Shown here piece by piece: positions 5,015 to 24,000 of a stretch of 24,000 bases of DNA (positions within the stretch are counted from its first letter, which is position 1; each line of letters begins with the position of its first letter). This DNA comes from Anaerosoma tenue (GTDB taxonomy: Bacteria > Actinomycetota > Coriobacteriia > Anaerosomatales > Anaerosomataceae). The notes below the pieces were generated by a model, which saw only the letters and a list, made by a program, of their open reading frames with translations, did not search any database and was not told the DNA's origin. Location: NCBI RefSeq assembly GCF_023161965.1, contig NZ_JALNTY010000002.1, positions 188,552 through 212,551 of the forward strand, read 5' to 3'. A program made the position numbers and the translations under genes.

Positions 5015-5078
5015 GTGCACACTCCTCTCCGGCGGCCGCTCGCACCACCGGGTCTCGTCCGACATCGTCCTATGGAAG

Positions 5079-5124: not shown

Positions 5125-5192
5125 ACGCATCTGCAACGCAGAAGCCTGCATCTGGCACACTGTTCACAACCAACCCGCCGAAAGGGGCGCGT

Positions 5193-6752: not shown

Positions 6753-6758
6753 CGGCGG

Positions 6759-7586
6759 CTACCCCACCGGCTTGCGCGCCGTGAGCGTGAAGGTGAGCGG
6801 GAGCTCCGGCATGTCGTCGGGCAGGCCGAAGAGGCCGTCCTCGCGCTCCACCATCCCCGGCGTGTACTGCCACGCGATGAGCGGGAACTCGCGCACCTCC
6901 TCGATCACGAGCCCGGCGCGCACGAGCGAGCCGATGATCTCCTCGAAGGTGTGCTGCCACGAGTGCGACGTGCCGACGACCTCATCGATAGGCGCCGCAT
7001 AGCTGCCGCGCTCCTCCCACTCGAGCGCGTCGCGGCCGAAGTACGAGTACTTGATGCGGAGCTCGGGATCCTCGGCCTCATCGTCGAAGATCCACAGGGT
7101 GGGGTGCATCTCGGCGATCTTGAACACGCCGCCGGGCGCGAGACGGCTGGCGATCGTCCGCGCCCACGGCTCGAGATCCGGCAGCCACGAGATCACGCCC
7201 CACGAGGTGAAGACCAGGTCGAAGGCGTTCTCCGGGAGCTCGGCCGGCGGCTCGAGCACGTTGCCCTCGATGAAGGTGGCCGGGATGCCCGAACGTGCCG
7301 AGAGGTCGCGCGCCGCCTCGACCGCCGCCGACGAGAAGTCGAGCCCGGTGGCCTCCGCGCCGAGGCGCACCAGCCGGAGCGTGTCCATGCCGAAGTGACA
7401 CTGCAGGTGGAGCGCCCGCTGACCGGAGAGGTCATCGCCAACGAGGCCCGAGACGATCGAGTCGTACGGGCTCGAGTCGGGATCGGCGATGAAGCCCTCG
7501 ACGTCGTAGAAGTCCGAAGGGACGTGCAGCGCCGTCCATCGCTGCCAGATGGCGTGGTTGGCGGCGATGCGGGAAGCGGTGTCCAT
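6759..7586 (-). CDS. Class I SAM-dependent methyltransferase (275 aa), substrate unknown
   Basis: Full ORF. SAM motif I-like ALHLQCHFGMDTLRLVRLGAEATGLDFS, then FDLVFTSWGVISWL and APGGVF. SD GAAAGG lies 7 nt upstream of ATG (complement of 7584..7586). Confidence 0.85.
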   Translation of the reverse strand: MDTASRIAANHAIWQRWTALHVPSDFYDVEGFIADPDSSPYDSIVSGLVGDDLSGQRALHLQCHFGMDTLRLVRLGAEATGLDFSSAAVEAARDLSARSGIPATFIEGNVLEPPAELPENAFDLVFTSWGVISWLPDLEPWARTIASRLAPGGVFKIAEMHPTLWIFDDEAEDPELRIKYSYFGRDALEWEERGSYAAPIDEVVGTSHSWQHTFEEIIGSLVRAGLVIEEVREFPLIAWQYTPGMVEREDGLFGLPDDMPELPLTFTLTARKPVG

Positions 7587-7678
7587 GGCGGGGCCTTTCG
7601 GGAGAACGATGACGGGTCGATTATGGCCGAACCCCCTCAGCGCGCACCACTCGACCTGAAGTAGACTCGGATTGATGG

Positions 7679-7707
7679 TTGATCCTTGTCATGAGGATCG
7701 GCTACAC
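7679..7707 (+). promoter_or_regulatory. Candidate sigma-70-type promoter of the methyltransferase gene with an embedded GATC-containing inverted repeat
   Basis: TTGATC (7679..7684), 17 nt, TACACT (7702..7707). The inverted repeat GATCCT(7681..7686)-N7-AGGATC(7694..7699) spans the -35 and spacer. Confidence 0.35.
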
Positions 7708-7744
7708 TCTGAACATACGTTCGATACCGACGGGAAGCGTGTCA

Positions 7745-9083: not shown

Positions 9084-9461
9084 ATGAAGGGGAATCGCGG
9101 GCGTGATACCAGGCCCGAGGTAGAGCTTCGGCGCCTACTGCGCGAGGCGGGATTCCCCGGCTACCGGCTCCACTGGAAGAAGGCTCCCGGCCACCCGGAC
9201 ATCGCCTACCCTGGCCGCAAGGTCGCGATCTTCGTGAACGGCTGCTTCTGGCACCGTTGTCCACACTGCAAGCCGCCACTTCCGAAGTCACACGTCGATT
9301 ACTGGCAGAAGAAGTTCGACCTGAACGTGGAACGGGACGCCCGCAAGACAGCGGAGCTGGAGGGTGCGGGATGGACGGTGGTCACGGTATGGGAGTGCCA
9401 GCTGCAGCAGGAGCCGCGCTCGGTCATAGCACGACTCTCAAGGATCCTGGACCCCTCTTAG
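9084..9461 (+). CDS. vsr: Very-short-patch repair endonuclease (Vsr)
   Basis: Frame of ORF 8955..9461. Sequence: MKGNRGRDTRPEVELRRLLREAGFPGYRLHWKKAPGHPDIAYPGRKVAIFVNGCFWHRCPHC...GWTVVTVWEC. The start is uncertain. In-frame TTG 9039 (17-nt overlap with dcm) would add ...AAVTRS, and the RS preceding M matches the usual Vsr N-terminal RSxxM pattern. Confidence 0.88.
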   Translation: MKGNRGRDTRPEVELRRLLREAGFPGYRLHWKKAPGHPDIAYPGRKVAIFVNGCFWHRCPHCKPPLPKSHVDYWQKKFDLNVERDARKTAELEGAGWTVVTVWECQLQQEPRSVIARLSRILDPS

Positions 9462-10822
9462 GAGTCTCTGTTCGTGACGAGCTGCCGCGCCATGTAGCGC
9501 TGGTTCAACCAGAAGGAACGACGCACCGCACGCCCTCCAGAAGGCGTTGGGAGGGTATCCTGGGCGTTCCTGCCGTGGGGCCGTACATGACACATCTCCT
9601 CGTCTGCTGATCTCGGAAGATAGTCCAACTTGTCCTCTCGGATGAGGTCCACGGTGGCCTCGAAGCACTCCCGGGCATGTGTGTCGACGTCTCTAATGGG
9701 CGGCGTCCAGAACTGGGTTCTCAGCAGGCGGGGTACACCATCCGCGCCCAACTGATAGATGACGAAGAAGAACCTTCGTGTGAGATTCTCTCGGAGATCC
9801 GAGTCCTCCCAGTTCTGACCGATCAGGTCGAGGTAGCTGAACGCCTTGAAGGACACGGCCTCCTTTGGCACGCTATCAGGTCTCAGCCGTATCGTCCGCA
9901 CGATGATGTCGGCCTTCTCGAACTCAGCGATCTTCCTGTCGGGCTCAACGCCGAGGATGCGTTTGGTCAGAAGATGGTAGAAGGCCTTCGCGCTACGGTT
10001 CACTCGTACATCCAACTGCTCCGCAATCTCAGGCGCCGTCATGCCGATGAACGGTCTGAAGCGTTCATGGACCACGTCCTCGAGAGTACGCCCGGACCTG
10101 AGCTCATCGGTGGAGACCGCGGACTGCATCTCCAGACTCTCCTCGATGACCGAGTTCATGTAGCTCGCCTTGAAGGAGAATGCTCTAGGCTTGGCAGGCT
10201 CGGCGGAGTGAGGCTGACTACGTCGATCGCTGCCTTTCGAACCCTTCGTGCAGGCGGCGAGGTACATCGTGTCGCCCTCGGACAACTCATGTGCTCGACC
10301 GTCACGGATCTTCGCGACGATGGCCTCCCAGTCGTCACGGATGATCTCGAGGTCCTCCTCTGGGGGCGACCAGAGCCGCGCAATCTTGAACACGTAGTCG
10401 AGCGGTGCGCGGCCCTCTTCCCAAAGGTAGATCATGAGCAGGAGAAGGTCGTTCTTCGACTTGAAGGAGCTGCTCTCCCAGTTCTCGCCGCAGACCACAT
10501 CGTAATCGATCATCTGCAGCACGAGTCGTTCCTTCGCCCGAAGCCTCTTGCCGACACGCTTCACCGGCGTCGTCTTCAGCTCGACACCGGCTTCGGTGAA
10601 GTCAGGCTCTGAGATGTTACCTGGGTTGATTCCGAAGTATCCACGCTCGACCAGGTCTCCCAGTCCACCCTTGCCGGCACCCGACTGATACGTGATCTGC
10701 TGGTCACCTGGAAGAAGGTCCCTGAGGCAGTGCCCTACGAGGCGCTTCGCATATGCCTCGATCGAAGCAGGGTCCGACGGGTCGTAGTCCCGCTGGTGCG
10801 CGACCATTGCTCTCCTTCTCAT
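9458..10822 (-). CDS. Type II restriction endonuclease, Sau3AI / MutH family (454 aa; GATC specificity predicted by family)
   Basis: Frame of ORF 9458..11314. Start moved to ATG (complement of 10820..10822), with SD GAGGGGA 6 nt upstream. MutH-type catalytic region EPDFTEAGVELKTTP...KERLVLQMIDY. Strong collinear similarity to Sau3AI as I recall that sequence: DWEAIVAKIRDGRAHELSEGDTMYLAACTKGS, PRAFSFKASYMNSVI, MCHVRPHGRN, RRSFWLNQRYM. The upstream 164 codons of the track ORF are antisense to yegP. Confidence 0.9.
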   Translation of the reverse strand: MRRRAMVAHQRDYDPSDPASIEAYAKRLVGHCLRDLLPGDQQITYQSGAGKGGLGDLVERGYFGINPGNISEPDFTEAGVELKTTPVKRVGKRLRAKERLVLQMIDYDVVCGENWESSSFKSKNDLLLLMIYLWEEGRAPLDYVFKIARLWSPPEEDLEIIRDDWEAIVAKIRDGRAHELSEGDTMYLAACTKGSKGSDRRSQPHSAEPAKPRAFSFKASYMNSVIEESLEMQSAVSTDELRSGRTLEDVVHERFRPFIGMTAPEIAEQLDVRVNRSAKAFYHLLTKRILGVEPDRKIAEFEKADIIVRTIRLRPDSVPKEAVSFKAFSYLDLIGQNWEDSDLRENLTRRFFFVIYQLGADGVPRLLRTQFWTPPIRDVDTHARECFEATVDLIREDKLDYLPRSADEEMCHVRPHGRNAQDTLPTPSGGRAVRRSFWLNQRYMARQLVTNRDS

Positions 10823-10942
10823 CGTGGTCCCCTCAACGAACCACACGCGTCGAAGATGCGCAAATCGCAACTGACACAGGAGCCCGCCCCCCCCTCCCTT
10901 CGGGTACGTACCTGACATAGCCCTCTCCCGAAAGGAGCCGTC

Positions 10943-11284
10943 ATGCCAGGCAAGTTCGTCCTTGCGCTCGCCAAGAACGGCGAGTTCACCTTCAACCTCA
11001 AGGCAGGCAACAGCCAGACGATTCTCACCAGCGAGACCTACAAGGCGAAGAAGAGCGCACTCAACGGCATCGAGTCGGTGCGCACCAACGGCGTGATGGA
11101 CGAGCACTTCGAGCGCCGGGTCGCCAAGGACGGTCGTCCGTACTTCGTGCTCAAGGCCAGCAACGGCCAAGAGATCGGCCGCAGCCAGATGTACGCTTCG
11201 AGCGCTACCATGGAGAAGGGCATCGCCTCGGTGAAGAACAACGCGCAGAACGCCGTGGTGGAGGACACCACCGTAGAAGCGTAG
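10943..11284 (+). CDS. yegP: YegP / DUF1508 (UPF0339) tandem-domain protein (113 aa)
   Basis: Two repeats of the DUF1508 signature: FTFNLKAGNSQTILTSETYKAKKSALNGIESVRTNG and YFVLKASNGQEIGRSQMYASSATMEKGIASVKNN. SD AAAGGAG (10931..10937) lies 5 nt upstream. Confidence 0.9.
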   Translation: MPGKFVLALAKNGEFTFNLKAGNSQTILTSETYKAKKSALNGIESVRTNGVMDEHFERRVAKDGRPYFVLKASNGQEIGRSQMYASSATMEKGIASVKNNAQNAVVEDTTVEA

Positions 11285-11352
11285 GGACGCGTTGCATCTG
11301 CATACGGCGCGCATGACCCGCCTGACACGTCCGCGCCCGCGAGAGGACCGCT

Positions 11353-12387: not shown

Positions 12388-12843
12388 GTGACTTCTGCGC
12401 AGCGGAACGGGGACCTGCGAGCCTGGCTTGCACGGCTCGCCGTGGGCGCGGTCTTCGCCGTGAACGTACAGAGCGCGGTGGTGTTCCTCGCGTATCCCGG
12501 GCGCTACGCTCCCGGATTCGAACTCGCGGGAGTGGCGGGCGAGGCGGCCGTGCGAGGCCTTGGCGTCGCCTTCCTGATGTGGAACGCCACCTATCCCCTT
12601 GTGATCTGGCGTCCGCGGAGGCACCGCACGCTCTTTGGCGTCGTGCTCGCACAGCAGGCGATCGGCCTCCTCGGCGAATCGTGGATCCGGGCGACGCTGC
12701 CATCGGGACACGCCACGCTCGCCGCCGGGATCGAGCGATTCATCCTCTTTGATGCCATCGGACTTCTTGTGATGCTCGCCACATTCATCGCCCTCGGCGG
12801 TGATTCAAGCCAGGCGGATGGGGATACCATCAAGGAAAGCTAA
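12388..12843 (+). CDS. Hypothetical 4-TM membrane protein (151 aa); I recognise no family
   Basis: GTG start 7 nt after SD GGAGGGG (12374..12380), 18 nt after the DUF389 stop. Four hydrophobic segments: LARLAVGAVFAVNVQSAVVFLAY, AAVRGLGVAFLMWNATYPLVIW, TLFGVVLAQQAIGLLGESWI, FILFDAIGLLVMLATFIALGG. Coding status rests on SD, spacing and operon context only. Confidence 0.7.
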   Translation: MTSAQRNGDLRAWLARLAVGAVFAVNVQSAVVFLAYPGRYAPGFELAGVAGEAAVRGLGVAFLMWNATYPLVIWRPRRHRTLFGVVLAQQAIGLLGESWIRATLPSGHATLAAGIERFILFDAIGLLVMLATFIALGGDSSQADGDTIKES

Positions 12844-12865
12844 GCCTGCGACGGAAGGGGTGCAC

Positions 12866-13624
12866 GTGGACAGTGATTCCCGCTTCAAAAGGCTTCGGAT
12901 CTACAACATCGTGATGGGGTTGTTCCACCTGGGTCAGGGCGCGGCCATCATGGCGCTTGCCGAGCCGTACGCCATCCAGGTGACGGCATCGTGGTTGAGC
13001 GTGCGCCCGGGTCCCGGCGTGTACAGCCCGCCGCAGGAGTACTTCCAGTTCGACCTCGGTATGGGGGTGGCGCTCTTCCTGTTCTTCTCGGCGCTGGCGC
13101 ACTTCGTGATCGCCGGTCCGGCGTACGCCAAGTACGTCGAAGGCCTGAAGAACAACCACAACTACTACCGCTGGATCGAGTACGCGTTCAGCTCGTCGCT
13201 GATGGTCATCCTCATCGCATCGCTGGTGGGCATCACCGACATCGCGGCGCTCACCGCGATCTTCGGCGTGAACGCGTCGATGATCCTTTTCGGCTGGCTG
13301 ATGGAGAAGTACGAGCAGCCCGGCAAGCCCGACTGGACGGCGTTCATCTTCGGCTGCATCGCGGGAATCTTCCCGTGGATCGCTATCGCCGACTACCTGT
13401 GGGGCCCCGGCGCAAGCGACATGACCCCCACGTTCGTGTACTGGATCTTCGTGTCGATGTTCGTGTTCTTCAACAGCTTCGCGGTGAACCAGGTGTTGCA
13501 GTACAAGCAGGTGGCCAAGTGGAAGGACTACCTCTTCGGCGAGGCCACGTACGTGTTCCTGAGCCTCACCGCCAAGTCGCTCCTGGCCTGGCTCGTGTTC
13601 GCTAACGTGCTCATCCCGCAGTAG
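12866..13624 (+). CDS. Heliorhodopsin (252 aa)
   Basis: Frame of ORF 12800..13624. Start placed at GTG 12866, 5 nt after GGAAGGGG (12853..12860); GTG 12860 is possible. Full-length collinear match to the heliorhodopsin family: GLFHLGQ, ALAHFVI, YRWIEYAFSSSLMVILIA (counterion Glu, codon 13178..13180), FGVNASMILFGWLMEKY, FGCIAGIFPWI, FFNSFAVNQVLQYK, LSLTAKSLLAW (retinal Lys, codon 13574..13576). Confidence 0.93.
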   Translation: MDSDSRFKRLRIYNIVMGLFHLGQGAAIMALAEPYAIQVTASWLSVRPGPGVYSPPQEYFQFDLGMGVALFLFFSALAHFVIAGPAYAKYVEGLKNNHNYYRWIEYAFSSSLMVILIASLVGITDIAALTAIFGVNASMILFGWLMEKYEQPGKPDWTAFIFGCIAGIFPWIAIADYLWGPGASDMTPTFVYWIFVSMFVFFNSFAVNQVLQYKQVAKWKDYLFGEATYVFLSLTAKSLLAWLVFANVLIPQ

Positions 13625-13741: not shown

Positions 13742-14779
13742 ATGCCAGCACCCGCGCCCGACATCCGCACACTCCTCCCGCCACGCTCGGTGGTGCTCGG
13801 CCCGATGGCCGGGGTGACCGAGGCGCCGTTCCGCGGCATCTGCAAGCGCATGGGCGCCACCCTCACTTACACCGAGATGATCAGCGCCAAGGGGCTGCAC
13901 TACAACCCCGACTCCCGCGTCTCCCGTGAGCTGCTCACGTTCGATCCCGCCGAGGCGCCCTGCGGCGTGCAGCTCTTCGGCTCGGATCCCGCGATCATGG
14001 CCGACCGGGCCGCCTGGGTGTGCGCCGAGTACGGCGACGACGTGGCGCTCATCGACATCAACATGGGCTGTCCGGTCACCAAGGTGGTGAGCAACGGCGA
14101 GGGCAGCGCCCTGATGCGCACGCCGGAGCTGGCGGCCGAGATCGTGTCCCGCGTGGCTGCGGCTGTGCCGGTGCCGGTGACCGCCAAGTTCCGCGCCGGC
14201 TGGGATGCCGACGAGATCAACGCCGTGGAGTTCGCCAAGACGATGGAAGCCGCCGGCGCAGCGGCGCTGTGCGTGCACGGGCGCACACGCAAGCAGTTCT
14301 ACCAGGGCGCTGCCGACTGGGACGTGATCGCGGCCGTGAAGACCGCTGTGGACGTTCCCGTGATCGGCAGCGGCGACGTGTTCTCCGCCACGGATGCGGC
14401 GGCGATGCTGGAGCGCACCGGGGTGGACGCCGTGATGGTGGCGCGCGGCGCGCAGGGCGACCCGTGGATCTTCCGCGAGGCCCGCGCGCTCCTGGACCGC
14501 GGCGAGACCCTCCCACCGCCCACGCCGCTGGAGCGCGTGGAAATGGCGCGAGAACACGCCCGGGCGCTCGTGGCGTTCGCCGGCGAGCATGCCGTGACAC
14601 GCATGCGCAAGCACATCGGCTGGTACATCGTGGGCATGCCAGGCGCGCGCCACGTTCGCGAGCGTGTGAACCACGTGACCACCTCGGCAGAGCTGGATTC
14701 GCTCCTCGGGGAATATGAGGGGTATCTTCAGCACACCGGCAGCACTGACGATGCGGACACCTCACATGACGAAGCGTAA
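13742..14779 (+). CDS. dusB: tRNA-dihydrouridine synthase (DusB-like, 345 aa)
   Basis: Frame of ORF 13691..14779. Start at ATG 13742; the GTG at 13691 lies immediately after the terminator and is unlikely. Motifs: VLGPMAGVTEAPFRGI, DINMGCPVTKVV (catalytic Cys), AKFRAGW, LCVHGRTRKQ. There is no SD. A TACCAT at 13728..13733 could mean a leaderless mRNA. Confidence 0.9.
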   Translation: MPAPAPDIRTLLPPRSVVLGPMAGVTEAPFRGICKRMGATLTYTEMISAKGLHYNPDSRVSRELLTFDPAEAPCGVQLFGSDPAIMADRAAWVCAEYGDDVALIDINMGCPVTKVVSNGEGSALMRTPELAAEIVSRVAAAVPVPVTAKFRAGWDADEINAVEFAKTMEAAGAAALCVHGRTRKQFYQGAADWDVIAAVKTAVDVPVIGSGDVFSATDAAAMLERTGVDAVMVARGAQGDPWIFREARALLDRGETLPPPTPLERVEMAREHARALVAFAGEHAVTRMRKHIGWYIVGMPGARHVRERVNHVTTSAELDSLLGEYEGYLQHTGSTDDADTSHDEA

Positions 14780-17399
14780 GGACCTCAGCAGCGGCATACC
14801 CGCACTCGACCGCGTCCTCGAAGGTGTGTGGGCGGGCGACAACATCGTGCTGCAGGTGGACGACATCGCCGATTTCCTGCCCTTCGCGCACCGTTACTGC
14901 GAGTACACGCGCAACGCTGGCCGCAAGCTCGTGTACTTCCGTTTCGCCGACCACGAGCCGCTCCTGCCGGAAGGCCTTCCGGCCGAGGTGCACGAGCTCG
15001 ACCCCTCGGCAGGTTTCGAGCAGTTCATCTCCGAGATCCTCACCGTGATCGACCGCAACGGCCACGACGCCGTGTACTACCTCTTCGACTCGCTCTCGGG
15101 CCTGGCGGTGGACTGGTACTCCGATCGCATGCTCGGCAACTTCTTCCGGCTCACGTGCCCCTACCTCTTCGACTACGACACCGTGGCGCTCTTCATGCTG
15201 CTGCGGAACGTGCACACGCCGCTGGCGACGCGCGCGATACACACCACCGCGCAGATCGTGCTCGATATCTTCCGGCACAAGGACGAGCTCTACATCCTGC
15301 CGCTCAAGGTATGGGAGCGGCGCTCGCCCACGATGTACATGCTGCACTCGTGGATCGGCGATGAGGTCCGGCCTGTCACCCGGAGCGTGGAGCTGGCCGA
15401 GATACGCACGTCCATGCCGCAGCCGTGGATTGACCCCAGCGTGGAATGGCGCGATCCGTGGACGAGCGCGTTCGCCGAGGCGCGCGAGGTGCAGGAGCGG
15501 CTGCGGGCGGGAGAGGCGGCGCCGGGCGAAGAGAAGGCTCATGTTCAGCGGCTGGTGCGCATGCTGCTCAGCCGCGACGAGACCGACGACGTGTTCGGCC
15601 TGTGCCTGGAGCACTTCGGGCTCGACGACCTGCTCGCAATCGGCAAGCGCATGATCGGCACCGGCCAGATCGGCGGGAAGTCGGTGGGGATGCTGCTTGC
15701 GCGGAAGATCCTCGAGCGGACGAAGCCGGATCTCGCCGGGCGCCTGGAGGTGCACGACTCGTTCTACGTAGGCTCCGACGTCTTCTACAGCTACCTCGTC
15801 CTCAACGACTGCTGGTGGGACCGCTACCGCCTCAAGGGCGCCGAGGACCTCTTCGACCGCGCGCGCGACCTGGAATCGCGCCTGCGTACCGGCGCCTTGC
15901 CGCCGGTGGTGCTCGAACAGTTCCGCGAAGTGCTCGAGTACTTCGGCCAGTCGCCGGTCATCGTGCGCTCGTCGAGCCTGCTCGAAGACGCGTACGGCAA
16001 CTCGTTCTCCGGCAAGTACGAGAGCGTTTTCTGCGGCAACCAGGGGAACCCCGAGGAGCGTCTTGCCGATTTCATCGAGGCCGTGCGCACCATCTATGCG
16101 AGCACCATGAGCGAGGAGGCGCTCTCCTACCGGCTCCACCGCGGTCTCATCCACCGCGACGAGCAGATGGCGCTTCTGGTTCAGCGCGTCTCAGGCGAGT
16201 TCCACGGCGACCTCTACTACCCCCACATCGGCGGCGTGGGTTACTCGTTCAACCCGTACGTGTGGCACAAGCGGATCGACCCCGCGCAGGGCATGCTGCG
16301 CCTCGTCTTCGGCCTGGGCACGCGCGCAGTGGACCGTCACGACGACGACTACACTCGGGTGGTGGCGCTGAACGCTCCCATGCTGCGGCCCGAGGGCTCC
16401 ACCGACGAGATCCGCACGTACAGCCAGAAGGCCGTGAACGTCATCAGCCTCGCCGAGAACGCACACGCACCGCGGAGCTTCGAGGAGGTCCTCGCCGCAT
16501 CGGGCGACCTGCCGCTTGAGATGCTCACCTCGCGCGACCTCGCGCTCGAGCAACGCGCCCGCGAAGCCGGCGTGCACAACGTCTTCTCGGAGGTCCTCAC
16601 CTTCGAAGGGCTGCTGACTCGCACGGCGTTCCCCGCCGAGATGCACGCGATGATGAGCGCCATCGCCGAGGCATACCGCCATCCCGTGGATATCGAGTTC
16701 ACGGTGAACTTCACCGACGACGGTGACTACCTGGTCAACCTGCTGCAGTGCCGGCCGTTCCACTTCGTGGGCGAGCTCACGCACCTGCCCGCGCCAGCGG
16801 ACATCCCGCCCGCCACCGTGCTGCTCAAGACCGCGGGACCGGTGATCGGCCACAGCATGGCGATCGAGGTGGACCGGGTGGTGTACGTGGTGCCCGAGGA
16901 GTACAGCGCGCTCTCCACCAACGACCGGTTCGCAACAGCGAGTCTCGTGGGCCGCGTGATGAACCAGCCCGGCGAGAAGCGGTCGATCGTGCTCGCGGGA
17001 CCGGGCCGATGGGGCACACGGATGCCGGAGCTGGGAGTGCCCGCCATGCTCTCGCAGATCAAGAACGCCACGGTGCTCTGCGAGGTGGCCGAGATGCACG
17101 CCGGCCTCAACCCCGACCTCTCGCTCGGCACGCACTTCTTCAACGATCTCGTCGACCTCGGCATCCTCTACATGGGCATCAAGCCGGGAAGCACCGGGTC
17201 GCTCCTCAACGCCGACCTCCTCCAGGGGCTCCCCAACGCCCTCGGCAGGATCATCCCCGAGGCGTCCGACAAGGGCGATCTCGTGCGCGTGATCGATGCC
17301 GAGGACCTCGACGGCCGCTCGATCTGGCTGTGGTCGGATGTGCTCGAGCAGCGCGCGATCGTCTTCGTGTCGGACCGCTGCGAGGTGCGCAGGCCGTAG
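14766..17399 (+). CDS. PEP/pyruvate-binding (PPDK_N ATP-grasp) domain protein with a degenerate RecA/KaiC-like N-terminal domain (877 aa)
   Basis: Frame of ORF 14715..17399. Start uncertain: ATG 14766 is preferred (14-nt overlap with dusB), with ATG 14751 or 14715 possible. The central region carries the PPDK_N signature VIVRSSSLLEDAYGNSFSGKYESV and HPVDIEFTVN...LLQCRPF. I see no phosphohistidine swivel motif (G-G-x-T-S-H-A-A type); the C-terminus has GPGRWGTR and SLGTHFFNDLV. Confidence 0.85.
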   Translation: MTKRKDLSSGIPALDRVLEGVWAGDNIVLQVDDIADFLPFAHRYCEYTRNAGRKLVYFRFADHEPLLPEGLPAEVHELDPSAGFEQFISEILTVIDRNGHDAVYYLFDSLSGLAVDWYSDRMLGNFFRLTCPYLFDYDTVALFMLLRNVHTPLATRAIHTTAQIVLDIFRHKDELYILPLKVWERRSPTMYMLHSWIGDEVRPVTRSVELAEIRTSMPQPWIDPSVEWRDPWTSAFAEAREVQERLRAGEAAPGEEKAHVQRLVRMLLSRDETDDVFGLCLEHFGLDDLLAIGKRMIGTGQIGGKSVGMLLARKILERTKPDLAGRLEVHDSFYVGSDVFYSYLVLNDCWWDRYRLKGAEDLFDRARDLESRLRTGALPPVVLEQFREVLEYFGQSPVIVRSSSLLEDAYGNSFSGKYESVFCGNQGNPEERLADFIEAVRTIYASTMSEEALSYRLHRGLIHRDEQMALLVQRVSGEFHGDLYYPHIGGVGYSFNPYVWHKRIDPAQGMLRLVFGLGTRAVDRHDDDYTRVVALNAPMLRPEGSTDEIRTYSQKAVNVISLAENAHAPRSFEEVLAASGDLPLEMLTSRDLALEQRAREAGVHNVFSEVLTFEGLLTRTAFPAEMHAMMSAIAEAYRHPVDIEFTVNFTDDGDYLVNLLQCRPFHFVGELTHLPAPADIPPATVLLKTAGPVIGHSMAIEVDRVVYVVPEEYSALSTNDRFATASLVGRVMNQPGEKRSIVLAGPGRWGTRMPELGVPAMLSQIKNATVLCEVAEMHAGLNPDLSLGTHFFNDLVDLGILYMGIKPGSTGSLLNADLLQGLPNALGRIIPEASDKGDLVRVIDAEDLDGRSIWLWSDVLEQRAIVFVSDRCEVRRP

Positions 17400-17402
17400 C
17401 GC

Positions 17403-18689
17403 TCAGATGTCGCTCTTCTTCATGCCGAGGGCGGCCGCCATCGCCTCGGCAGTCGCCTCCACTTGCGGCGCCGTGAGGTGGCGCGTCTCGATCACCACGT
17501 GCTTGGCGTCGAAGTCGCCCCAGTCGTCCGTGAGGATCGTGAGGCCGAGTTCGGCGGCACGATCGTAGAAGTCGGTGCCGGGGAACGGGCACGTGTAGGA
17601 GAGGTAGATGCGCGCGCCGAGCTCGTGCACCTCGGCCATGAACTCCAGGCTCTCCCGGAGCGTCTCGGGCGTGTCGTCCGGGAACGGGATCATGAAGGAG
17701 CAGACGGCGTCGATGCCGCACGCCACCGCAGCGGCGACCGCATCACGCACCTGCTGCTTCTCGATGCCCTTCACCGAGTCGAGCACGGTCTGCGAACCCG
17801 ACTCCACGCCGAACTGGATGCCGGTGCAGCCGGCCTCGGCCATCTGCCGGATGAGATCGGCGTCCACGAGGTCCACGCGTGTGGCGCAGCCCCACTCCAC
17901 CGGGTGCTCGAGCGCGCCAAGCGCCTCCAGCAGCTCGCCGATCCAGCGGCGGTTGAGCGTGAAGATGTCGTCGGTGAAGAAGACCTCGTCCACCCCGTGC
18001 TCGCGCCACAGATCGGCGATCTCGGCGGCGATGCTCTCCGGCGAACGCATGCGGCGACGCCCCTGCCAGAGCGAGGAGGCCGAGCAGAACGGACAACGGT
18101 ACGGGCAGCTCCCCGTAGCGGTGAGCACGTTCCACTTGTCGTGGTAGAAGTCCGTGGGGAACAGCCACCGCGCCGGGCGCGGCAGGTCATCGGGATGGCC
18201 GAGCTCGGCGCGCGGGTTCACGTGCGGCGCGTCGTCCTCGATGAAGCCGAGGCCCGGAACGTCGGCCAGGCTGCCCTCACCGCGGACCACGTTGCGCGCG
18301 AGCGCCACCATCGCGTCCTCGCCCGGGCCGGCCACGATGAAGTCCACCGCGTCCCGCTCGGCAAGGACCTCCTCGGGCAGGATGGTGGGATGCGCGCCGC
18401 CGATCACCACCACTGTCTCCGGCGAGCGCTCCTTGATGTGCCGCGCGATCTCGAGCGCCTGCGGGTATGTCTCGGTCATGGCCGAGATGCCCACGATGCG
18501 GGGACGATCGTTGGCCAGGATGCTGTTCACCCTCACCAGGTTCAGCCCGCTCACGTTGAAGTCGACCGCGCTCACGGAGAAGCCGTCCTCCATGAGCGCA
18601 GACGCGATGTAGGCGAGACCCAACGGAGGGCTCAGCCGTGCGTGCTCGTTCCTCTTGCGAACGGGCGCGTTGACCAGCGTCACGTCCAT
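17403..18689 (-). CDS. B12-binding-domain radical SAM enzyme (428 aa), substrate unknown
   Basis: Full ORF. N-terminal cobalamin-binding-type domain (PPLGLAYIASAL...IVGISAMT...VVVIGGAHPT) and radical SAM motif GSCPYRCPFCSAS. GGCGGGA lies ~4 nt upstream of ATG (complement of 18687..18689). Confidence 0.9.
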   Translation of the reverse strand: MDVTLVNAPVRKRNEHARLSPPLGLAYIASALMEDGFSVSAVDFNVSGLNLVRVNSILANDRPRIVGISAMTETYPQALEIARHIKERSPETVVVIGGAHPTILPEEVLAERDAVDFIVAGPGEDAMVALARNVVRGEGSLADVPGLGFIEDDAPHVNPRAELGHPDDLPRPARWLFPTDFYHDKWNVLTATGSCPYRCPFCSASSLWQGRRRMRSPESIAAEIADLWREHGVDEVFFTDDIFTLNRRWIGELLEALGALEHPVEWGCATRVDLVDADLIRQMAEAGCTGIQFGVESGSQTVLDSVKGIEKQQVRDAVAAAVACGIDAVCSFMIPFPDDTPETLRESLEFMAEVHELGARIYLSYTCPFPGTDFYDRAAELGLTILTDDWGDFDAKHVVIETRHLTAPQVEATAEAMAAALGMKKSDI

Positions 18690-18725
18690 CAGGTCCCGCC
18701 TACATCCATGCGCCTTGTGAGCGCG

Positions 18726-19166
18726 TTACTCTTCGGTCTCGGATACGGCCTCTTCGGCCCCCGCGTCCGGGTCCTTGTACGGTGCCACCTGGATCGAACG
18801 GGTCATCAGTATCTCGCGTACCCTTGGGGCCACGATACCGAACGGTTCTCCCGCGCGCATCTCCTCGGCGATGGCGTCCGCCAACTCCTCGTCCTCCAGG
18901 ACCTCCCGGACCCACGTCTGGAGCGCGCCCAGATCGATGTAGCCGATCGTCTCCTGGTTGTTGGGCCGGATCGCCTCCTCATACGTACCGATCTTGAGGA
19001 AGCTTGCCACCTGGGCCAGCGAGTAGAGCGCCACGGGGTTCGAACCGCCCATCACCGACATCTTGAGTCCGGTGATGCGCTCGTCCTGTCCGACCTCGCG
19101 GAGCAAGCGCTCCGCGAGCTCAGGCGACGGCTGTGTCAACTCACGTGCCACGGTGCGTTCCTCCAT
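18726..19166 (-). CDS. Hypothetical acidic protein (146 aa), translationally coupled to the AOR gene
   Basis: Frame of ORF 18726..19169. The minus strand reads ...TCGTGATGGAG: AOR stop TGA (19168..19166) overlaps ATG (19166..19164), and a GTG start at 19169 is also possible. Product MEERTVARELTQPSPELAERLL...DPDAGAEEAVSETEE. I recognise no family. Confidence 0.65.
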   Translation of the reverse strand: MEERTVARELTQPSPELAERLLREVGQDERITGLKMSVMGGSNPVALYSLAQVASFLKIGTYEEAIRPNNQETIGYIDLGALQTWVREVLEDEELADAIAEEMRAGEPFGIVAPRVREILMTRSIQVAPYKDPDAGAEEAVSETEE

Positions 19167-21241
19167 CACGAGCCGAGCTTGCCGGCGGCCTCGAGGTCAT
19201 CGGCCACGTGCGAAAGACCGAGCTCCTCGAGCGTGGCGCGGGTCGGCCAACCGGTGGCCGGGTCCCAACCTTCGAGGGTGTAGAACTTGGTCTTCCACTC
19301 CTCGACCTTGTCGCGGTCGAGCATGCGGCCCACGGCGCTCTCGTACACCCACTGGCCGTCCTTGTACATCGGCACCACGTACGGGACCTCGTAGGTGGTG
19401 TAGCCGGGCACAGCGCCGACCTCGTAGTTGTAGTCGGTGAAGACCTCGAGCTCGCGATCGCGGCCCTGGAGGATCCAGATGGCCCGGTCGAGGTTCCAGA
19501 TCTTGCGGCCGACCTCCATGCCCTCCTCGAACGACTGGTCGATGCCGGTGACGGCCTTGTAGAACTTGGGCTCGCCCTCGCCGGTCATGCCGCGGCCCTC
19601 GGGGCCGTACTCGTTGAAGAAGTCGCCCCACGCCCAGTCGCACAGTGCCAGTGACTGCTTGTAGTAGCGGGTGTAATGGCGGTGCCACGCCACCAGCTTG
19701 GCCATCGACTCCGAGTAGATGCCCTCGTCGCTGTAGTCCATCATCATCGGATCATTGTACGGGCTGAGCTTCTCGCCCATGATCTCCGCAAGCTGGTCTG
19801 CCGAGCAGGCCGGCTGTGCGCCGAACAGCGCCGAGATCGACGGCGCCCAGAACACGAGCGTGTTGAAGTCGTGCTCGTTGATATCACGGTCGCCCACGAG
19901 CGAGCCGTAGCCCCACTCCACCTCGGTACGGGCGTCGTAGTGCTGCACGTAGCCGTGGCACTGGAGCGGCAGGATGCCGCTCGCGGTATCCTGCTCGTAG
20001 CGTCCCCACTTCTCCGCGGCGTACGCGACGCCTTCGTGGAGCGCCTCGCCCACGTCGTAGCCGTTGGCCATCATGTCGAGGAACTGCTTGGCGAATTCGG
20101 CGGTGCCGAGCTGGTTGAAGTCGAGCGCGGTGTCGATCTCCAGACCCGGGCCGAGGATGCCCTCCTTGTGGAGGTTGTTCAGCCAGATGATCGCGCCCTC
20201 GGCCTGATAGGAGTTGATGCCGTAGCGCTGCAGCGCCTCGGTGGCGTCCAGGATGTGCTGGGTGTAGCTGCCGTGGGCCGCCTGGTCGTACACGTGGTAG
20301 AAGAAGTAGTCCACGCACGACGAGCCGTTGCTCGCGGCGCTTGCGAAGCGTGCGCGGCAGTTCTTGTGGCAGCCGAGACACCCGATCGGGGACTTCGGCT
20401 GGTCGGCAGGACCATAGCCCGCGGCGCCAGAGGCCGGGGCGCCACCGAACATCGACCCCATGCCCAGCGGCGTGTAGTCCTCGTCGAGGTGGCCCGCCAC
20501 CGCATACTCCATCGACCACAGACGTGCATCCATGAGCGCCTTGGGGTCGGCGATCTCAACGGAACCGGTGCCGAGCACGCTGATGGCCTTCAGGTTCTTG
20601 GCGCCGAACACGCCACCGAAGCCACCCTGGCCCGCGCCGTTGCCCGCGTCGTGGATGAGCGCCGCGGTCCGGCTGAGGGTCTCGCCCGCCTTGCCGATAG
20701 TGAGAACGGCCGGCCGCTGCGTGGTGCGCTCCTTGCCCAGCTCGCGCCACTCCTTTTCTTCACCGTTCTGCACGATGCGCCAGATCTCTTCCTGCGCCTC
20801 CACCGCGTCGAGGCCCCAGAGGCCCTCAGCGCTCTTGAACTCCACCTCGCCGTTGCGGATGTCGATCCACACCGGCTCGTCCGCTGCGCCTTCCACGGTG
20901 AAGCCGTCCCAGCCCGCCCACTTCATGTGACCGCAGAACCGGCCGCCGAAGTTCGAGCGGGTGAAGTACTCGATCGGGTAGCCCTGCACGCCGATTCCCT
21001 GGACCTCGGTACGCCCCGAAGCCGCCGGGACCAGAGTGCCGGAGAACGGCGACGCCATGATCGTCACGACGTTCTTGGGATCGAAGCCGGAGACGGTCTT
21101 GTCTTCGCACAGGTCCCAGAAGACCGCTGAACCCATGCCGTGCCCGCCGCCGTACTCCTGGTACTTCTCGCTATCGAGGGTCGAGACCGACTTGTTCGTC
21201 AGGTCGATCCTCAGGATCTTCCCGGTATATCCACCAGCCAT
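19166..21241 (-). CDS. Aldehyde:ferredoxin oxidoreductase (AOR) family tungsto/molybdopterin enzyme, long YdhV-like form (691 aa)
   Basis: Full ORF, with SD AGGAGG 8 nt upstream. AOR N-terminal domain: MAGGYTGKILRIDLTNKSV..., GGRFCGHMKWAGWDGFTVEGAADEPVWI, GGFGGVFGAKNLKAISVLG. [4Fe-4S] motif CLGCHKNC (CxxCxxxC). C-terminal FYTLEGWDPATGWPTRATLEELGL. No N-terminal signal peptide. Confidence 0.93.
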   Translation of the reverse strand: MAGGYTGKILRIDLTNKSVSTLDSEKYQEYGGGHGMGSAVFWDLCEDKTVSGFDPKNVVTIMASPFSGTLVPAASGRTEVQGIGVQGYPIEYFTRSNFGGRFCGHMKWAGWDGFTVEGAADEPVWIDIRNGEVEFKSAEGLWGLDAVEAQEEIWRIVQNGEEKEWRELGKERTTQRPAVLTIGKAGETLSRTAALIHDAGNGAGQGGFGGVFGAKNLKAISVLGTGSVEIADPKALMDARLWSMEYAVAGHLDEDYTPLGMGSMFGGAPASGAAGYGPADQPKSPIGCLGCHKNCRARFASAASNGSSCVDYFFYHVYDQAAHGSYTQHILDATEALQRYGINSYQAEGAIIWLNNLHKEGILGPGLEIDTALDFNQLGTAEFAKQFLDMMANGYDVGEALHEGVAYAAEKWGRYEQDTASGILPLQCHGYVQHYDARTEVEWGYGSLVGDRDINEHDFNTLVFWAPSISALFGAQPACSADQLAEIMGEKLSPYNDPMMMDYSDEGIYSESMAKLVAWHRHYTRYYKQSLALCDWAWGDFFNEYGPEGRGMTGEGEPKFYKAVTGIDQSFEEGMEVGRKIWNLDRAIWILQGRDRELEVFTDYNYEVGAVPGYTTYEVPYVVPMYKDGQWVYESAVGRMLDRDKVEEWKTKFYTLEGWDPATGWPTRATLEELGLSHVADDLEAAGKLGS

Positions 21242-21292
21242 GTGGCATTCCTCCTGGTCTGTTGGTCGTCAGGTGACTCGTACGTGGTCCTG

Positions 21293-22054
21293 CTAGTGGC
21301 CGGTCGGTGCCGGGGCCGCCGTCGCCACGGGCGCGTATGACCCGTCGTCTTCGGTCGGCAGGCCGAGAAGGGCCCATGCCACGTTGTCGTCGCGCAGGTT
21401 CACCTGGTAACCCGTATCGGTCTGCGCGGGGATGTCGCTCACAAAGCTGATCGCGCGGGTGGGGCACACGGCCACGCACGCCTGCTGGCCGCCGACGCCG
21501 CCCTCTTCGGTCATGTACGGGGTGTCCTTGCACAGGTCGCACTTCTGCGCCTTGCGCTTCTTGGGATCCCACTGGACGCGCGACGGAGTGAACGGGCACG
21601 CCTCGATGCAGCGCTCGCAGCCGATGCACTTGGCCTGATCCACCGTGCGCACGTTGCCGTTGTCGGGATCTGCGTGCATCGCGCCCGTGGGGCACGCCTC
21701 GGCGCAGTACGGGTGCGGGCACTGCCTGCACTGCTCCTGGACGACGCTGTCCTCTTCACCATACGCAGCGAAGACGTTGTTGATGACCTGGATGCGCGAG
21801 AGCGAGAGGCTCGTCTCACCGGAGTGCACGAGCGAGCAGGCGAGCATGCAGCTCGCGCAGCCGGCGCACTTGTGGGTGTCGACGACGAGGTAGCCCTCGG
21901 AAGCCGGGACCGCGAACACGCTGTCCGGCAGGAAGAAGCTCTTGACCATGAAGCCGCCCGCGAGAGCCCCGATACCTACACCGCCTGCTCCTATGAGGAA
22001 CTGCCGGCGTGAGTAGCCCTGGCCCTCGGTCGTCTTGATATCGTTGTCCGCCAT
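21293..22054 (-). CDS. Tat-signal 4x[4Fe-4S] ferredoxin-like electron-transfer subunit (DmsB/HybA/YdhX type, 253 aa)
   Basis: Frame of ORF 21293..22087. Start at ATG (complement of 22052..22054), with SD GAAAGGA 9 nt upstream. Twin-arginine motif SRRQFLIGAGGVGIGALAGG. Four Cys clusters: CAGCASCMLAC, CRQCPHPYCAEAC, CIGCERCIEAC, CDLC...CVAVC. Confidence 0.9.
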   Translation of the reverse strand: MADNDIKTTEGQGYSRRQFLIGAGGVGIGALAGGFMVKSFFLPDSVFAVPASEGYLVVDTHKCAGCASCMLACSLVHSGETSLSLSRIQVINNVFAAYGEEDSVVQEQCRQCPHPYCAEACPTGAMHADPDNGNVRTVDQAKCIGCERCIEACPFTPSRVQWDPKKRKAQKCDLCKDTPYMTEEGGVGGQQACVAVCPTRAISFVSDIPAQTDTGYQVNLRDDNVAWALLGLPTEDDGSYAPVATAAPAPTGH

Positions 22055-22089
22055 GTGGAGATGTCCTTTCAGATATCGTCCGCGCACCC

Positions 22090-22938
22090 TTACTCGGGCG
22101 CGTCTCCGGTCTTCGTGAGGCGCTTGTACCAGCCGGCGTGCTCCTTCTTGGCCTGCTCCACCGACACGTAGCCGGTGAACATGCTCTTGAGCACCGGCCA
22201 GCTCATCGGCAGGATCGCCGCGAAGAAGACGTGGGCGAGGAAGAAGGCGAGCATCGCGATGGTGGAGACGTCATGCACCAGCGTCGTGGCGCCCATGAGG
22301 CCCGCCGGCATGTCGACCACGTGCGCGAGGGCCTTCAGAAGCCCGGTCACGATGATCAGCACCGTGGAGGCCAGGGCGAGGATGTAGGCCATCTTCTCGC
22401 TCTCGAAGTACTTGTCCTCGGGCGGCATGGTGCAGCTCTTCACGCCCAGGAGGTGTCCGTAGTGGTTCTTCGTGTACTCCCAGAAGTCCTTGGTCGGCAG
22501 GTGCTCCTTGAAACGGTGCGCTGAAAGAAGTGTGTTCGCGCCGTAGTAGAAGGTGCCGAACAGGAACATCACCACGAAGACGAAGTGCAGGTTCATCATC
22601 GCCCAGGTCCACGTGCCGCTTGACACCAGACGCGGGACGAACAGGAACCCGAGCGCGATGCCGGTGACGAGCAGCATCATGGTGCCGATGCCGTGCGTCC
22701 AGTGCTCGAGGATCGCCGCGCCGTCGTGGCGCAGCACCTTGTCCCCTTCGATTCGCGGGTCCTCCCGACGGGTGAGCCCCGCCGCGAAGATGCCCACCAG
22801 CGGTGCTGCGAAGACCAGCCACCAGCCGGAGTCGAAGAGAAGCTCGGAGCCGTCGGTTGCCGCCACCTGCCAGGCGTAGACCGCTCCGACCGCGAACACC
22901 AGCGCCAGAATGACGCTTGTGAGCGCGCGTTTACTCAT
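22090..22938 (-). CDS. Membrane b-type cytochrome subunit (FdnI / Ni-Fe hydrogenase cytochrome b / YdhU-PhsC-like, 282 aa)
   Basis: Frame of ORF 22090..22974. Start moved to ATG (complement of 22936..22938), with SD GGAAGGGG 7 nt upstream. It has ~5 TM helices. Conserved-looking His residues: VLRHDGAAILEHWTHGIGTMMLLVTG, MNLHFVFVV, LVHDVSTIAMLAFFLAHVFF. Confidence 0.8.
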   Translation of the reverse strand: MSKRALTSVILALVFAVGAVYAWQVAATDGSELLFDSGWWLVFAAPLVGIFAAGLTRREDPRIEGDKVLRHDGAAILEHWTHGIGTMMLLVTGIALGFLFVPRLVSSGTWTWAMMNLHFVFVVMFLFGTFYYGANTLLSAHRFKEHLPTKDFWEYTKNHYGHLLGVKSCTMPPEDKYFESEKMAYILALASTVLIIVTGLLKALAHVVDMPAGLMGATTLVHDVSTIAMLAFFLAHVFFAAILPMSWPVLKSMFTGYVSVEQAKKEHAGWYKRLTKTGDAPE

Positions 22939-22974
22939 GCGCACACCCCTTCCCCTGATCTCGATTGCAGGCAT

Positions 22975-23060
22975 AGATGTATCTGCCGGGCCTGCTGCTC
23001 CTTACATTGACCGTCTGGCGACAGTTAGTGTCAATCTCTCAATAGTTGATAGTTGGAGGC
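22975..23060 (-). promoter_or_regulatory. AT-rich candidate promoter/operator region of the cytochrome b-FeS-AOR operon
   Basis: Locally AT-rich patch. The minus strand carries TTGACA (complement of 23029..23034). Inverted repeat ATTGAC (23006..23011) / GTCAAT (23030..23035), and tandem direct repeat ATAGTTG x2 (23042..23055). The -10 is only weak (GTCAAT at 17-nt spacing). Confidence 0.35.
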
Positions 23061-23155
23061 GCTACCACCTCTGAGCAGGGAATGTCGCCTTCGGTGGCGC
23101 GGTCACCGTGGGTCCCGGTGTCATCCCTGCGGCTGTACGGCGTCTCTCAGGCCGG

Positions 23156-24000
23156 CTACGCCAGTTTCACGAGGCCGAGCCGCGCCGCCTCCTCGCTGAC
23201 GATCGCGTCGACCCGGGCGGCGCTCAGATGCCGTGTCTCCATCACGAGATGCTTGGCGTCGTACTCACCCCAGTCGTGAGTGAGGATCGTGATGCCGAGT
23301 TCGTCCGCCTGTTCGTAGAAGGCCGTCCCCGGATAGGGCGTGGTGTACGACATGAGGATCTCAGCGCCCTCGTCGCGCAGCTGTCCGATGAACGCGAATG
23401 TCTCGCGCAGCGTCTCTTCGGTATCATCCGGGAACGGCACCATGAACGAGGCCGTGGTCTTGAGCCCCGCCGCCACCGACCACCGCACCGCGTCGAGCGC
23501 GACCTGCTTATCGATGCCCTTGACCGAGTCGAGGATGGTCTGCGACCCCGACTCCACGCCGTACTGGATGCCGGTGCAGCCATGGACGGCCATGAGGCCG
23601 ATCAGCTCCTCATCGACCTTGTCGACCCGCGTGCCGCACCCCCACTCCACGGCCCCGCCGAGCCGCTCCATCTCGCGCATCAACTCCACGACCCAATCGC
23701 GCCGGAGCGTGAAGATGTCGTCCACGAAGAAGACGAAGCTCGCGCCATAGTCGCGCACCAGCAGTCCGATCTCATCCACAACGGACTTGGGTGAGCGGGG
23801 GCGGTGACGCCCGCTCCAGATGTGCGACGCCGAGCAGAACGGACACCGGTACGGGCATCCGCCTCGGGCGGTGAGAACGTTGAACGCATCGGCATAGAAC
23901 TCAAGCGGCAGCAGGTCACGCGCGGGCAGGCTGAGGGTGTCCGGGTCGAGCAAAGCCCGTCTGGCGTTCTCGACGATCTCGCCCGTTGGCGTCTTCCACA
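23156..24000 (-). CDS. B12-binding-domain radical SAM enzyme, paralog of 17403..18689; C-terminal ~281 codons, with the 5' end beyond the window
   Basis: The track ORF 23156..23953 begins at an internal TTG. The frame stays open to position 24000 (…WKTPTGEIVENARRALLDPDTLSLPARDLL…). Radical SAM motif GGCPYRCPFCSAS. It is collinear with the other paralog to the C-terminus (GCTGIQYGVESGSQTILDSVKGI, FMVPFPDDTEETLRE, DWGEYDAKHLVMETRHL). Confidence 0.9.
   Translation of the reverse strand, partial: WKTPTGEIVENARRALLDPDTLSLPARDLLPLEFYADAFNVLTARGGCPYRCPFCSASHIWSGRHRPRSPKSVVDEIGLLVRDYGASFVFFVDDIFTLRRDWVVELMREMERLGGAVEWGCGTRVDKVDEELIGLMAVHGCTGIQYGVESGSQTILDSVKGIDKQVALDAVRWSVAAGLKTTASFMVPFPDDTEETLRETFAFIGQLRDEGAEILMSYTTPYPGTAFYEQADELGITILTHDWGEYDAKHLVMETRHLSAARVDAIVSEEAARLGLVKLA

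Follow-up and report, generated by a model that had tools for sequence, protein, structure and literature searches.

A B12-type radical SAM gene as a conserved component of YdhV-like AOR gene cassettes in Anaerosoma tenue and other bacteria

Gene content of the cassette

We analysed a 24,000-nt stretch of the Anaerosoma tenue genome (RefSeq assembly GCF_023161965.1, contig NZ_JALNTY010000002.1, positions 188,552 to 212,551; hereafter the window), which carries on its minus strand a string of five genes built around an aldehyde oxidoreductase (AOR) gene and closed by a gene for a B12-binding radical S-adenosylmethionine (rSAM) protein. In order of reading, these genes encode an FdnI-type di-haem cytochrome b as predicted membrane anchor (cytb, 22090..22938); a four-cluster ferredoxin-like iron-sulfur subunit (FeS, or WorS, NrfC/HybA-like; 21293..22054) with the twin-arginine signal SRRQFLIGAGG; a YdhV-like catalytic W/Mo-bis-pyranopterin subunit of 691 aa (AOR, or WorL; 19166..21241) without a signal peptide of its own; a small acidic protein of 146-147 aa from an unnamed family, with neither cysteine nor signal peptide (p147, 18726..19169); and a class-B type radical SAM protein of 428 aa, with a B12-binding domain and rSAM core (rSAM1, 17403..18689). 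The start of p147 overlaps the AOR stop codon by 4 nt, and 36 nt on the same strand separate p147 from rSAM1, which is the last gene of the string exactly as the initial annotation of this DNA had it. Taken mechanically, the open reading frames of cytb and FeS extend to 22974 and 22087; their likely starts are MSKRAL at 22938 and MADNDIK at 22054, and a closely related metagenome contig (L163, described below) has gene calls of 282 and 253 aa for them.

Upstream of cytb, and in the same orientation, lie a spacer (22939..23155) and the C-terminal 280 codons of a paralogous B12-type radical SAM gene (rSAM2, 23156..24000). The frame of rSAM2 is open to the window edge (23156-23998, minus strand) and matches Radical_SAM (PF04055, 78.6 bits), in agreement with the earlier call of a second such gene at 23156..>24000; the edge cuts off about 436 nt at its 5′ end. 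The window holds one full cassette and the tail of a second, tandem one.

The two radical SAM proteins are collinear almost to their C-termini, as had been noticed from the letters alone. An ungapped BLASTP alignment contains 158 identities in 268 residues (59%; E 3e-114) and ends 2-3 residues short of both C-termini, and an earlier hand count of 39 identities in 60 residues from NVLTA was exact on recount. The similarity visible at the nucleotide level was likewise confirmed, at 75% between 17520-17600 and 23270-23350 and at 66% over the 804-nt collinear block, against a mean of 28% in a shifted-register control. Both proteins contain CPYRCPFC, and the cysteines C195-x3-C199-x2-C202 of rSAM1 are invariant in 20 homologues.

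rSAM1 matches the Pfam families PF02310 (B12-binding, 91.9 bits; cutoff 32.1) and PF04055 (94.8 bits), and has no signal peptide. The window does not reach the B12-binding domain of rSAM2, but P0180 has it: this 426-aa protein matches both PF02310 and PF04055 and shares 98% identity with the part of rSAM2 that is visible. By domain content, both paralogs are predicted to be class B (cobalamin-type) radical SAM proteins, and their use of cobalamin is likewise a prediction. A B12 domain alone is no proof of it, because the sequence similarity to AprD4 (PDB 6fd2) is limited to the rSAM core and C-terminus (rSAM1 residues 175-411) and excludes the B12 domain. In the same PDB sequence search, the matches to MgmA and TokK extend into the B12 domain. 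No NCBIfam model matches rSAM1 at its cutoff; the best is BchE (165.4 bits against 481), and other scores are 159.6/750 for ApyD, 135.9/578 for HpnJ, 114.6/500 for AprD4 (NF033070) and 86.3/360 for TIGR04014. The initial annotation had left room for a family of known function, and rSAM1 falls far below every named cutoff, outside all the named B12-type radical SAM equivalogs that were scored (BchE, HpnJ, ApyD, AprD4, MgmA, PhpK, HpnR, BzaD and others). The nearest PDB folds to its AlphaFold2 (AF2) model (pLDDT 83) are AprD4, TsrM and MgmA.

The AOR subunit matches AFOR_N (161 bits) and AFOR_C (112 bits) and aligns over its full length with E. coli YdhV (26% identity, E 2e-46). Its Cys288, Cys291, Cys295 and Cys534, which form the [4Fe-4S] pattern C-x2-C-x3-C...C, and its Cys309 are invariant in the comparison (13 sequences, including YdhV for the first four). 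The best NCBIfam match is the YdhV model NF007354 (212 bits; cutoff 868), and by this score and the identity to YdhV, AOR is a tentative candidate for clade 41 of the tungsten-containing oxidoreductases (WORs). FeS matches Fer4_11 and related 4Fe-4S domains, with NrfC/HybA-like NCBIfam matches all below cutoff, and the twin-arginine motif SRRxF is present in 41/41 FeS homologues (SRRQF in the window). The cytb protein matches PF01292 (Ni_hydr_CYTB, 55.9 bits) and, below cutoff, TIGR01583 (57.8 bits). No transporter gene belongs to the conserved cassette in the cassette loci examined.

Class V (YdhV-like) enzymes make up more than 10% of the AOR/WOR family; they are membrane-associated, their WorS bears a signal for twin-arginine translocation (Tat), and their function is unknown, none having an assigned activity or physiological role (PMC13328260). 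With its AFOR domains, [4Fe-4S] cysteines, Tat-bearing FeS and adjacent cytb, the predicted complex fits the definition of this class. It resembles the Class V WORs of clade 41, among them E. coli YdhYVWXUT and C. somerae CsWOR41 (PMC13328260), in its YdhV-like large subunit, its Tat-bearing poly-ferredoxin small subunit, its membrane partner and its outward-facing, respiratory-type arrangement. Unlike YdhYVWXUT, the cassette has no counterpart of YdhY or YdhT and no second ferredoxin gene, and its FdnI-type cytb is no more than marginally similar to YdhU (E 0.006 over 38 residues). Beyond the Class V complement, it adds p147 and the B12-type radical SAM protein; the term 'radical SAM' is absent from the main text of PMC13328260.

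p147 has no Pfam or NCBIfam match. At E ≤ 0.001 its family comprises 295 clusters (50% identity), nearly all of them stand-alone proteins of 110-170 aa, and its alpha/beta AF2 model (pLDDT 78) has no fold match in the PDB. We considered p147 as a homologue of YdhW and rejected this (hhalign probability 0.1). The p147 profile also matches five stretches of P0388, a 1520-aa protein that combines Ig-like domains with a type IX secretion signal domain (CHU_C), through either real domain reuse or a spurious repeat match. Cassettes L007, L018 and L019 have no p147, and their AOR-rSAM gap is only 100-210 nt. p147 is probably an accessory escort or chaperone that some lineages can dispense with.

Tandem cassettes and conservation of the pairing

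The genes upstream of rSAM2 were recovered from L163, an 11.4-kb metagenome contig (ENA ERZ782921 NODE_1758) that matches window positions 24000-17965 at 96.4% nucleotide identity over 6040 nt and runs 5.3 kb past the window end. It reads cytb, FeS, AOR (688 aa), a 151-aa protein, rSAM2 and a 217-nt spacer, followed by a second cassette of cytb, FeS, AOR (691 aa), a 146-aa protein and rSAM1. The full-length rSAM2 counterpart is P0180 (L163 4882-6162), which lies downstream of cytb-FeS-AOR-p151 and supplies the 5′ end that the initial annotation had found missing. By this gene order, rSAM2 closes a paralogous upstream cassette of its own (cassette A, the full cassette of the window being B). 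The two radical SAM genes had been read as bracketing, and jointly serving, a single AOR operon; L163 overturns that reading, as does the rSAM2 clade, whose six genome-locus members (6/6) each follow their own AOR, always from a clade about 49% identical to the window AOR. Other sources did not extend the window. Metagenome contigs searched for exact 60-mers gave 0 matches, and the contigs carrying 91% and 93% relatives of rSAM1 (L081 and L082) are too short or rearranged.

Cassettes A and B differ in how far their proteins have diverged, with 100% identity for cytb, 61% for FeS, 50% for AOR, 29% for the small protein and 59% for rSAM. A 1.63-kb block is 90.6% identical at the nucleotide level between the two L163 cassettes (blastn, 429-2050 versus 6242-7869) and corresponds to window positions 21449..23076 (minus strand) through the 96.4% alignment. 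It contains a promoter region of about 140 nt, cytb and the 5′ part of FeS, and the promoter region also precedes the upstream cassette in L163. The low-GC region between the paralogs, described earlier as AT-rich and regulatory, is therefore a promoter-proximal element common to both cassettes. The rSAM2-cytb spacer (181 nt to the mechanical cytb frame) is 60% GC with a 76-nt core of 49% GC, against a background of about 65%; the spacer with this promoter-like core holds CAACTAT twice in tandem (23042-23055), then TTGACA (23029-23034). A consensus scan of 17000-24000 for sigma-70 promoters and terminators found none above shuffled background, and no cobalamin riboswitch or other Rfam element was found in the window. 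AOR, p147 and rSAM have diverged to 29-59% between tandem cassettes whose promoter and cytb are near-identical, and the generic part of the module (promoter, cytb and FeS 5′ end) looks like the product of gene conversion or concerted evolution. In L003, cytb and the FeS N-terminus are identical between tandem cassettes (228-1900 versus 6642-8300), on a co-assembled contig where an assembly artefact is possible.

For the wider survey, an alignment-based scan with one genome per species yielded 79 loci, which were searched by tblastn with the window proteins. Adjacency was counted for rSAM genes at least 50% identical with at least 1.5 kb of upstream sequence (n=49). AOR lies directly upstream of rSAM in 43 of these 49 subfamily genes, and p147 stands between the two in 38 of the 43. 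Essentially every locus with an rSAM at least 50% identical keeps the order cytb, FeS, AOR, p147, rSAM, across several phyla and at 50-90% protein identity. Carriers are mostly Coriobacteriia/Anaerosomatales-type metagenome-assembled genomes (MAGs), often with 2-4 cassettes per MAG, together with Neobacillus niacini JJ211, Bacillus sp. FJAT-29814 and further Bacillota. The six exceptions are four orphans (L010, L014, L050 and L053), L020, and L023, with two adjacent rSAM genes behind two cassettes. B12-type radical SAM genes less than 35% identical (L054-L079) have no AOR neighbour by tblastn. Pairwise identities of rSAM and of the adjacent AOR are correlated (Mantel r=0.56; 0/2000 permutations as high). 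rSAM belongs to the AOR gene string as a conserved member and is no chance neighbour. Its subfamily co-occurs with YdhV-like AOR genes, as proposed from the window alone, and is not found mostly away from them.

A strict rule of one rSAM per AOR was rejected, as L017, L037 and L052 hold AOR(-p147) units without an rSAM of their own beside a cassette that bears one. In L017 (1-11278), three tandem AOR-p147 units, one with FeS only and one with cytb and FeS, have a single rSAM at the far end.

In the reverse direction, a metagenome scan with an AOR alignment returned 80 diverse AOR loci at 24-60% identity, among which L085 (AOR 48% identical) is the only one with a full rSAM-bearing cassette. 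FeS-AOR pairs 37-49% identical, with no cytb match, occur without rSAM in L083, L084, L087 and L090-L093. On a deep branch, L108 (1921-6364) encodes a Tat-bearing FeS (SRRKML), an AOR of 717 aa (28%) and a B12-type rSAM of 459 aa (33%, E 3e-52), with no p147. From the rSAM-less pairs and the presence of rSAM in L085 and L108, it follows that rSAM marks particular sub-clades of YdhV-like AORs and not the whole family.

Several loci show further features. L020 (9203-12393), from a Bacillaceae MAG, holds an FdhD/NarQ-family sulfurtransferase gene, rSAM and cytb, in which the contig ends. A few genes upstream of the Neobacillus niacini JJ211 cassette, at L018 552-4227, are genes for a MoeA-PBP-like (oxyanion-binding) fusion, MoaE and a ThiF/MoeB-type protein. 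Upstream of an rSAM 93% identical to rSAM1, L082 (1-2193) keeps only the final 43 codons of p147, beyond which the sequence is unrelated, and its PPDK_N neighbour is split into fragments; either the locus has decayed or been rearranged, or the assembly is chimeric. Just upstream of cytb, 16 loci carry a divergent gene of about 430-500 aa (L001 4206-5615, L007 4438-5868, L012 3999-5300 and L037 4825-6339, all on the minus strand, and 12 more) with no Pfam or NCBIfam match. Judged by eye, its core looks like a degenerate Fic domain and its C-terminus like a winged helix, and it may be a regulator of the cassette. In the window, another cassette occupies the upstream position and no such gene was seen. 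Small open reading frames resembling c-type cytochromes (CXXCH; Pfam matches at or below gathering cutoffs) lie downstream of rSAM in L081 (4641-4931) and upstream of the cassette in L001 (3297-3956).

Candidate roles of the radical SAM protein

From the gene order, its conservation, the co-divergence, the Tat signal and the domain content, we infer a role, a chemistry and a target for rSAM. The complex would be an extracytoplasmic, quinone-linked oxidoreductase held at the membrane by the di-haem cytochrome b, with the four-cluster FeS subunit exported via Tat and carrying the signal-less AOR subunit along. rSAM would remain in the cytoplasm and act before Tat export as a dedicated maturase of AOR. 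A SAM-derived radical would drive the reaction, probably a C-methylation through methylcobalamin, and the target may be a residue in either the catalytic subunit or FeS, or else the pterin cofactor bound to the apo-enzyme. Maturation of the complex was among the options listed in the initial annotation and is the one that the evidence favours; our version of it is tentative, and we judge a dedicated cytoplasmic maturase nearly as apt to be right as wrong.

A number of observations speak for such a maturase. The pairing holds in 43/49 genes across Coriobacteriia, Bacillaceae and other Bacillota and is repeated in the deep-branching L108, and rSAM has no other conserved gene context, its orphan copies lying amid unrelated genes. 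The compartments agree, with a Tat motif in 41/41 FeS proteins, no signal on rSAM or AOR, and no transporter gene. Separate rSAMs (59%) are retained beside separate AORs (50%) in cassettes whose cytb is 100% identical, in line with the Mantel correlation of 0.56. That some tandem cassettes have one rSAM in common (L017, L037 and L052) fits a trans-acting enzyme better than a subunit. At the head of the L020 cassette, rSAM adjoins the gene for FdhD, a known molybdoenzyme maturation factor. p147 is no obligate target, since the L007, L018 and L019 cassettes do without it. Cytoplasmic radical SAM maturases of exported enzymes are represented by QhpD, which acts on quinohemoprotein amine dehydrogenase, and by anSME, which acts on sulfatases; both are SPASM/twitch proteins with no B12 domain. 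The scheme is alike, with a radical SAM protein encoded in a redox enzyme's operon and working in the cytoplasm ahead of export or assembly. Pyrococcus furiosus has a MoaA-like cmo gene, of a different radical SAM class and likewise without a B12 domain, beside aor; no paper on cmo was found in the literature searched.

The closest analogue in kind is MgmA (QCMT), a radical SAM enzyme that depends on B12 and C-methylates a glutamine of methyl-coenzyme M reductase (MCR) (PMC9401015, PMC11796369). Like rSAM1, MgmA (PDB 9ccb) is a compact class-B protein, about 420-450 aa long, that lacks a large C-terminal domain. It is the second-best PDB sequence match to rSAM1 (E 8.7e-15 over residues 95-378) and a strong fold match (TM 0.68). 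It differs in being archaeal and in acting on MCR, and rSAM1 scores 86 bits against the TIGR04014 cutoff of 360. By analogy, MgmA offers a precedent for a B12-type radical SAM protein as the dedicated maturase of a large metalloenzyme.

Other observations weigh against a maturase. The orphan copies L010, L014, L050 and L053 stand amid unrelated genes. E. coli YdhV has no rSAM, nor do the FeS-AOR pairs of the reverse scan listed above, and the AOR fold therefore has no general need for a maturase of this type. In both sequence and structure, rSAM matches AprD4 best, and AprD4 is a diol dehydratase acting on a small molecule. Any two genes that descend jointly within one operon should co-diverge. 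No AOR is known to bear a modified residue, and no AOR-family enzyme is known to be modified by a B12-type radical SAM protein. Finally, no candidate modified residue was found: in the contrast of rSAM-linked with rSAM-less AORs, only G171, D198 and N201 separate the two groups, and they are not convincing as a modification site.

The main rival to a maturase is a cytoplasmic small-molecule enzyme that methylates, rearranges or dehydrates the substrate or product of AOR in a dedicated anaerobic catabolic or respiratory pathway. The closest solved structure points this way, as AprD4 is the best PDB match to rSAM1 by sequence (E 1.6e-27) and by fold (TM 0.79) and acts as a 1,2-diol dehydratase on an aminoglycoside; it differs in belonging to apramycin biosynthesis and an antibiotic gene cluster. 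The top NCBIfam similarities (BchE, HpnJ, PhpK and a ladderane lipid radical SAM protein) are also to small-molecule enzymes; BchE, HpnJ, ApyD and PhpK are similar to rSAM1 over nearly its full length at 118-165 bits (cutoffs 481-750), and none is tied to AOR genes. Cassette-specific rSAM paralogs that co-vary with AOR paralogs would fit substrate-specific pairs. Against a pathway enzyme stand the compartments: the AOR module is Tat-exported in 41/41 cases, rSAM is signal-less, and the conserved cassette has no transporter that could move a common metabolite across the membrane. No other catabolic gene is conserved nearby, the sole recurrent neighbour being the divergent gene without a family match, and several AOR cassettes share an rSAM or have none. 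We therefore regard a pathway role as unlikely, if by no means negligible, and tailoring of a substrate before or after the redox step, also suggested in the initial annotation, is disfavoured on account of the separate compartments and the missing transporter.

rSAM may instead tailor a freely diffusible cofactor, methylating the pyranopterin before its insertion or modifying menaquinone for cytb, so that no protein is its target. Cobalamin-type radical SAM proteins methylate pterins in methanopterin biosynthesis, and the L018 cassette lies near the MoeA-PBP, MoaE and ThiF/MoeB genes and the L020 rSAM near FdhD. A generic step of this sort needs one copy per genome, whereas 2-4 diverged copies are retained per genome, every one linked to an AOR of its own. 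The quinone site, moreover, belongs to cytb, which is kept identical between cassettes while rSAM diverges, and the known menaquinone C-methyltransferases are class C, not class B, radical SAM proteins. Cofactor tailoring is on balance decidedly improbable.

A further candidate target is p147, as a modified small subunit or a precursor of the ribosomally synthesized and post-translationally modified peptide (RiPP) type, with the link to AOR secondary. When present, p147 is always directly upstream of rSAM (38/43 cassettes), and motifs such as KMSVMGGSNP and NQETIGYID are conserved in it. Distant family members do not keep these motif residues, the protein is predicted to be a folded alpha/beta protein of 147 aa without a leader/core layout, and L017 has two AOR-p147 pairs that lack an rSAM of their own. 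As an obligate substrate or RiPP precursor, p147 was rejected on its absence from the rSAM-bearing L007, L018 and L019 cassettes and its lack of cysteine, and the broader proposal is very improbable. That the adjacency means nothing, reflecting a hitch-hiking gene or an annotation artefact, is scarcely credible: the four orphans and the decayed L082, with its rSAM beside a 43-residue p147 remnant, would suit it, and against it stand an order kept in 43/49 genes across several phyla at 50-90% protein identity, its recurrence in the independent deep branch L108 and the tight same-strand spacing.

Neighbouring genes and significance

The remaining genes of the window are not functionally tied to the cassette. 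A lysine-2,3-aminomutase-like radical SAM gene (LAM_C) followed by a GNAT acetyltransferase gene (1257-3453, plus strand) recalls the ablAB arrangement for N-epsilon-acetyl-beta-lysine. A full-length catalase gene (3554-5233, minus strand; PF00199, 632 bits) sits in an otherwise anaerobe-like context, and a heliorhodopsin gene (12800-13624, plus strand; PF18761, 314 bits) in an apparently anaerobic Coriobacteriia-type genome. A C-5 cytosine DNA methylase gene (Dcm; 7679-9055, plus strand) adjoins one for a 618-aa protein with a MutH-type endonuclease domain (9458-11314, minus strand), at a local GC of 0.60-0.62; the two are probably a restriction-modification pair. The window also holds a spermidine-synthase-like protein, a methyltransferase and Dus. 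An 894-aa PPDK_N (PEP-utilising, ATP-grasp) protein (14715-17399, plus strand) is convergent with rSAM1 at a distance of 3 nt, and this neighbour is kept in L001, L012 and L081 (82-86% identical).

The initial annotation knew of no described link between B12-type radical SAM chemistry and an AOR, and in the papers searched we found none between YdhV/AOR/WOR enzymes and B12-type radical SAM proteins; on tungsten, radical SAM and maturation, and on OPB41 with AOR, the literature yielded no more than general reviews or a genome paper on an unrelated matter. The Class V-type AOR complex with a dedicated B12-type radical SAM protein and a new small-protein family is a distinct sub-type. Coriobacteriia of the subsurface and of sediments carry it in several copies per genome, and its cultured Bacillaceae carriers allow experiments.

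If rSAM is a maturase, heterologous expression of AOR without it would give inactive enzyme. The one Class V enzyme tested in PMC13328260 is reported to lack aldehyde-oxidising activity, and a maturase could bear on that missing activity. Cobalamin-dependent radical SAM chemistry would also gain a new class of targets besides MCR and natural products, and AOR would be the first member of its family to need a radical SAM maturase. If rSAM is a pathway enzyme instead, the cassette would point to an anaerobic route not yet described, in which radical chemistry is paired with a W/Mo redox step outside the cytoplasm. Our overall proposal, which we think somewhat more apt to fail than to hold, is that this AOR-family enzyme may need a radical SAM maturase, with C-methylation as a possible reaction, and that in environmental Coriobacteriia and some Bacilli AOR-p147-rSAM may be the module that gives a multi-paralog respiratory system its specificity.

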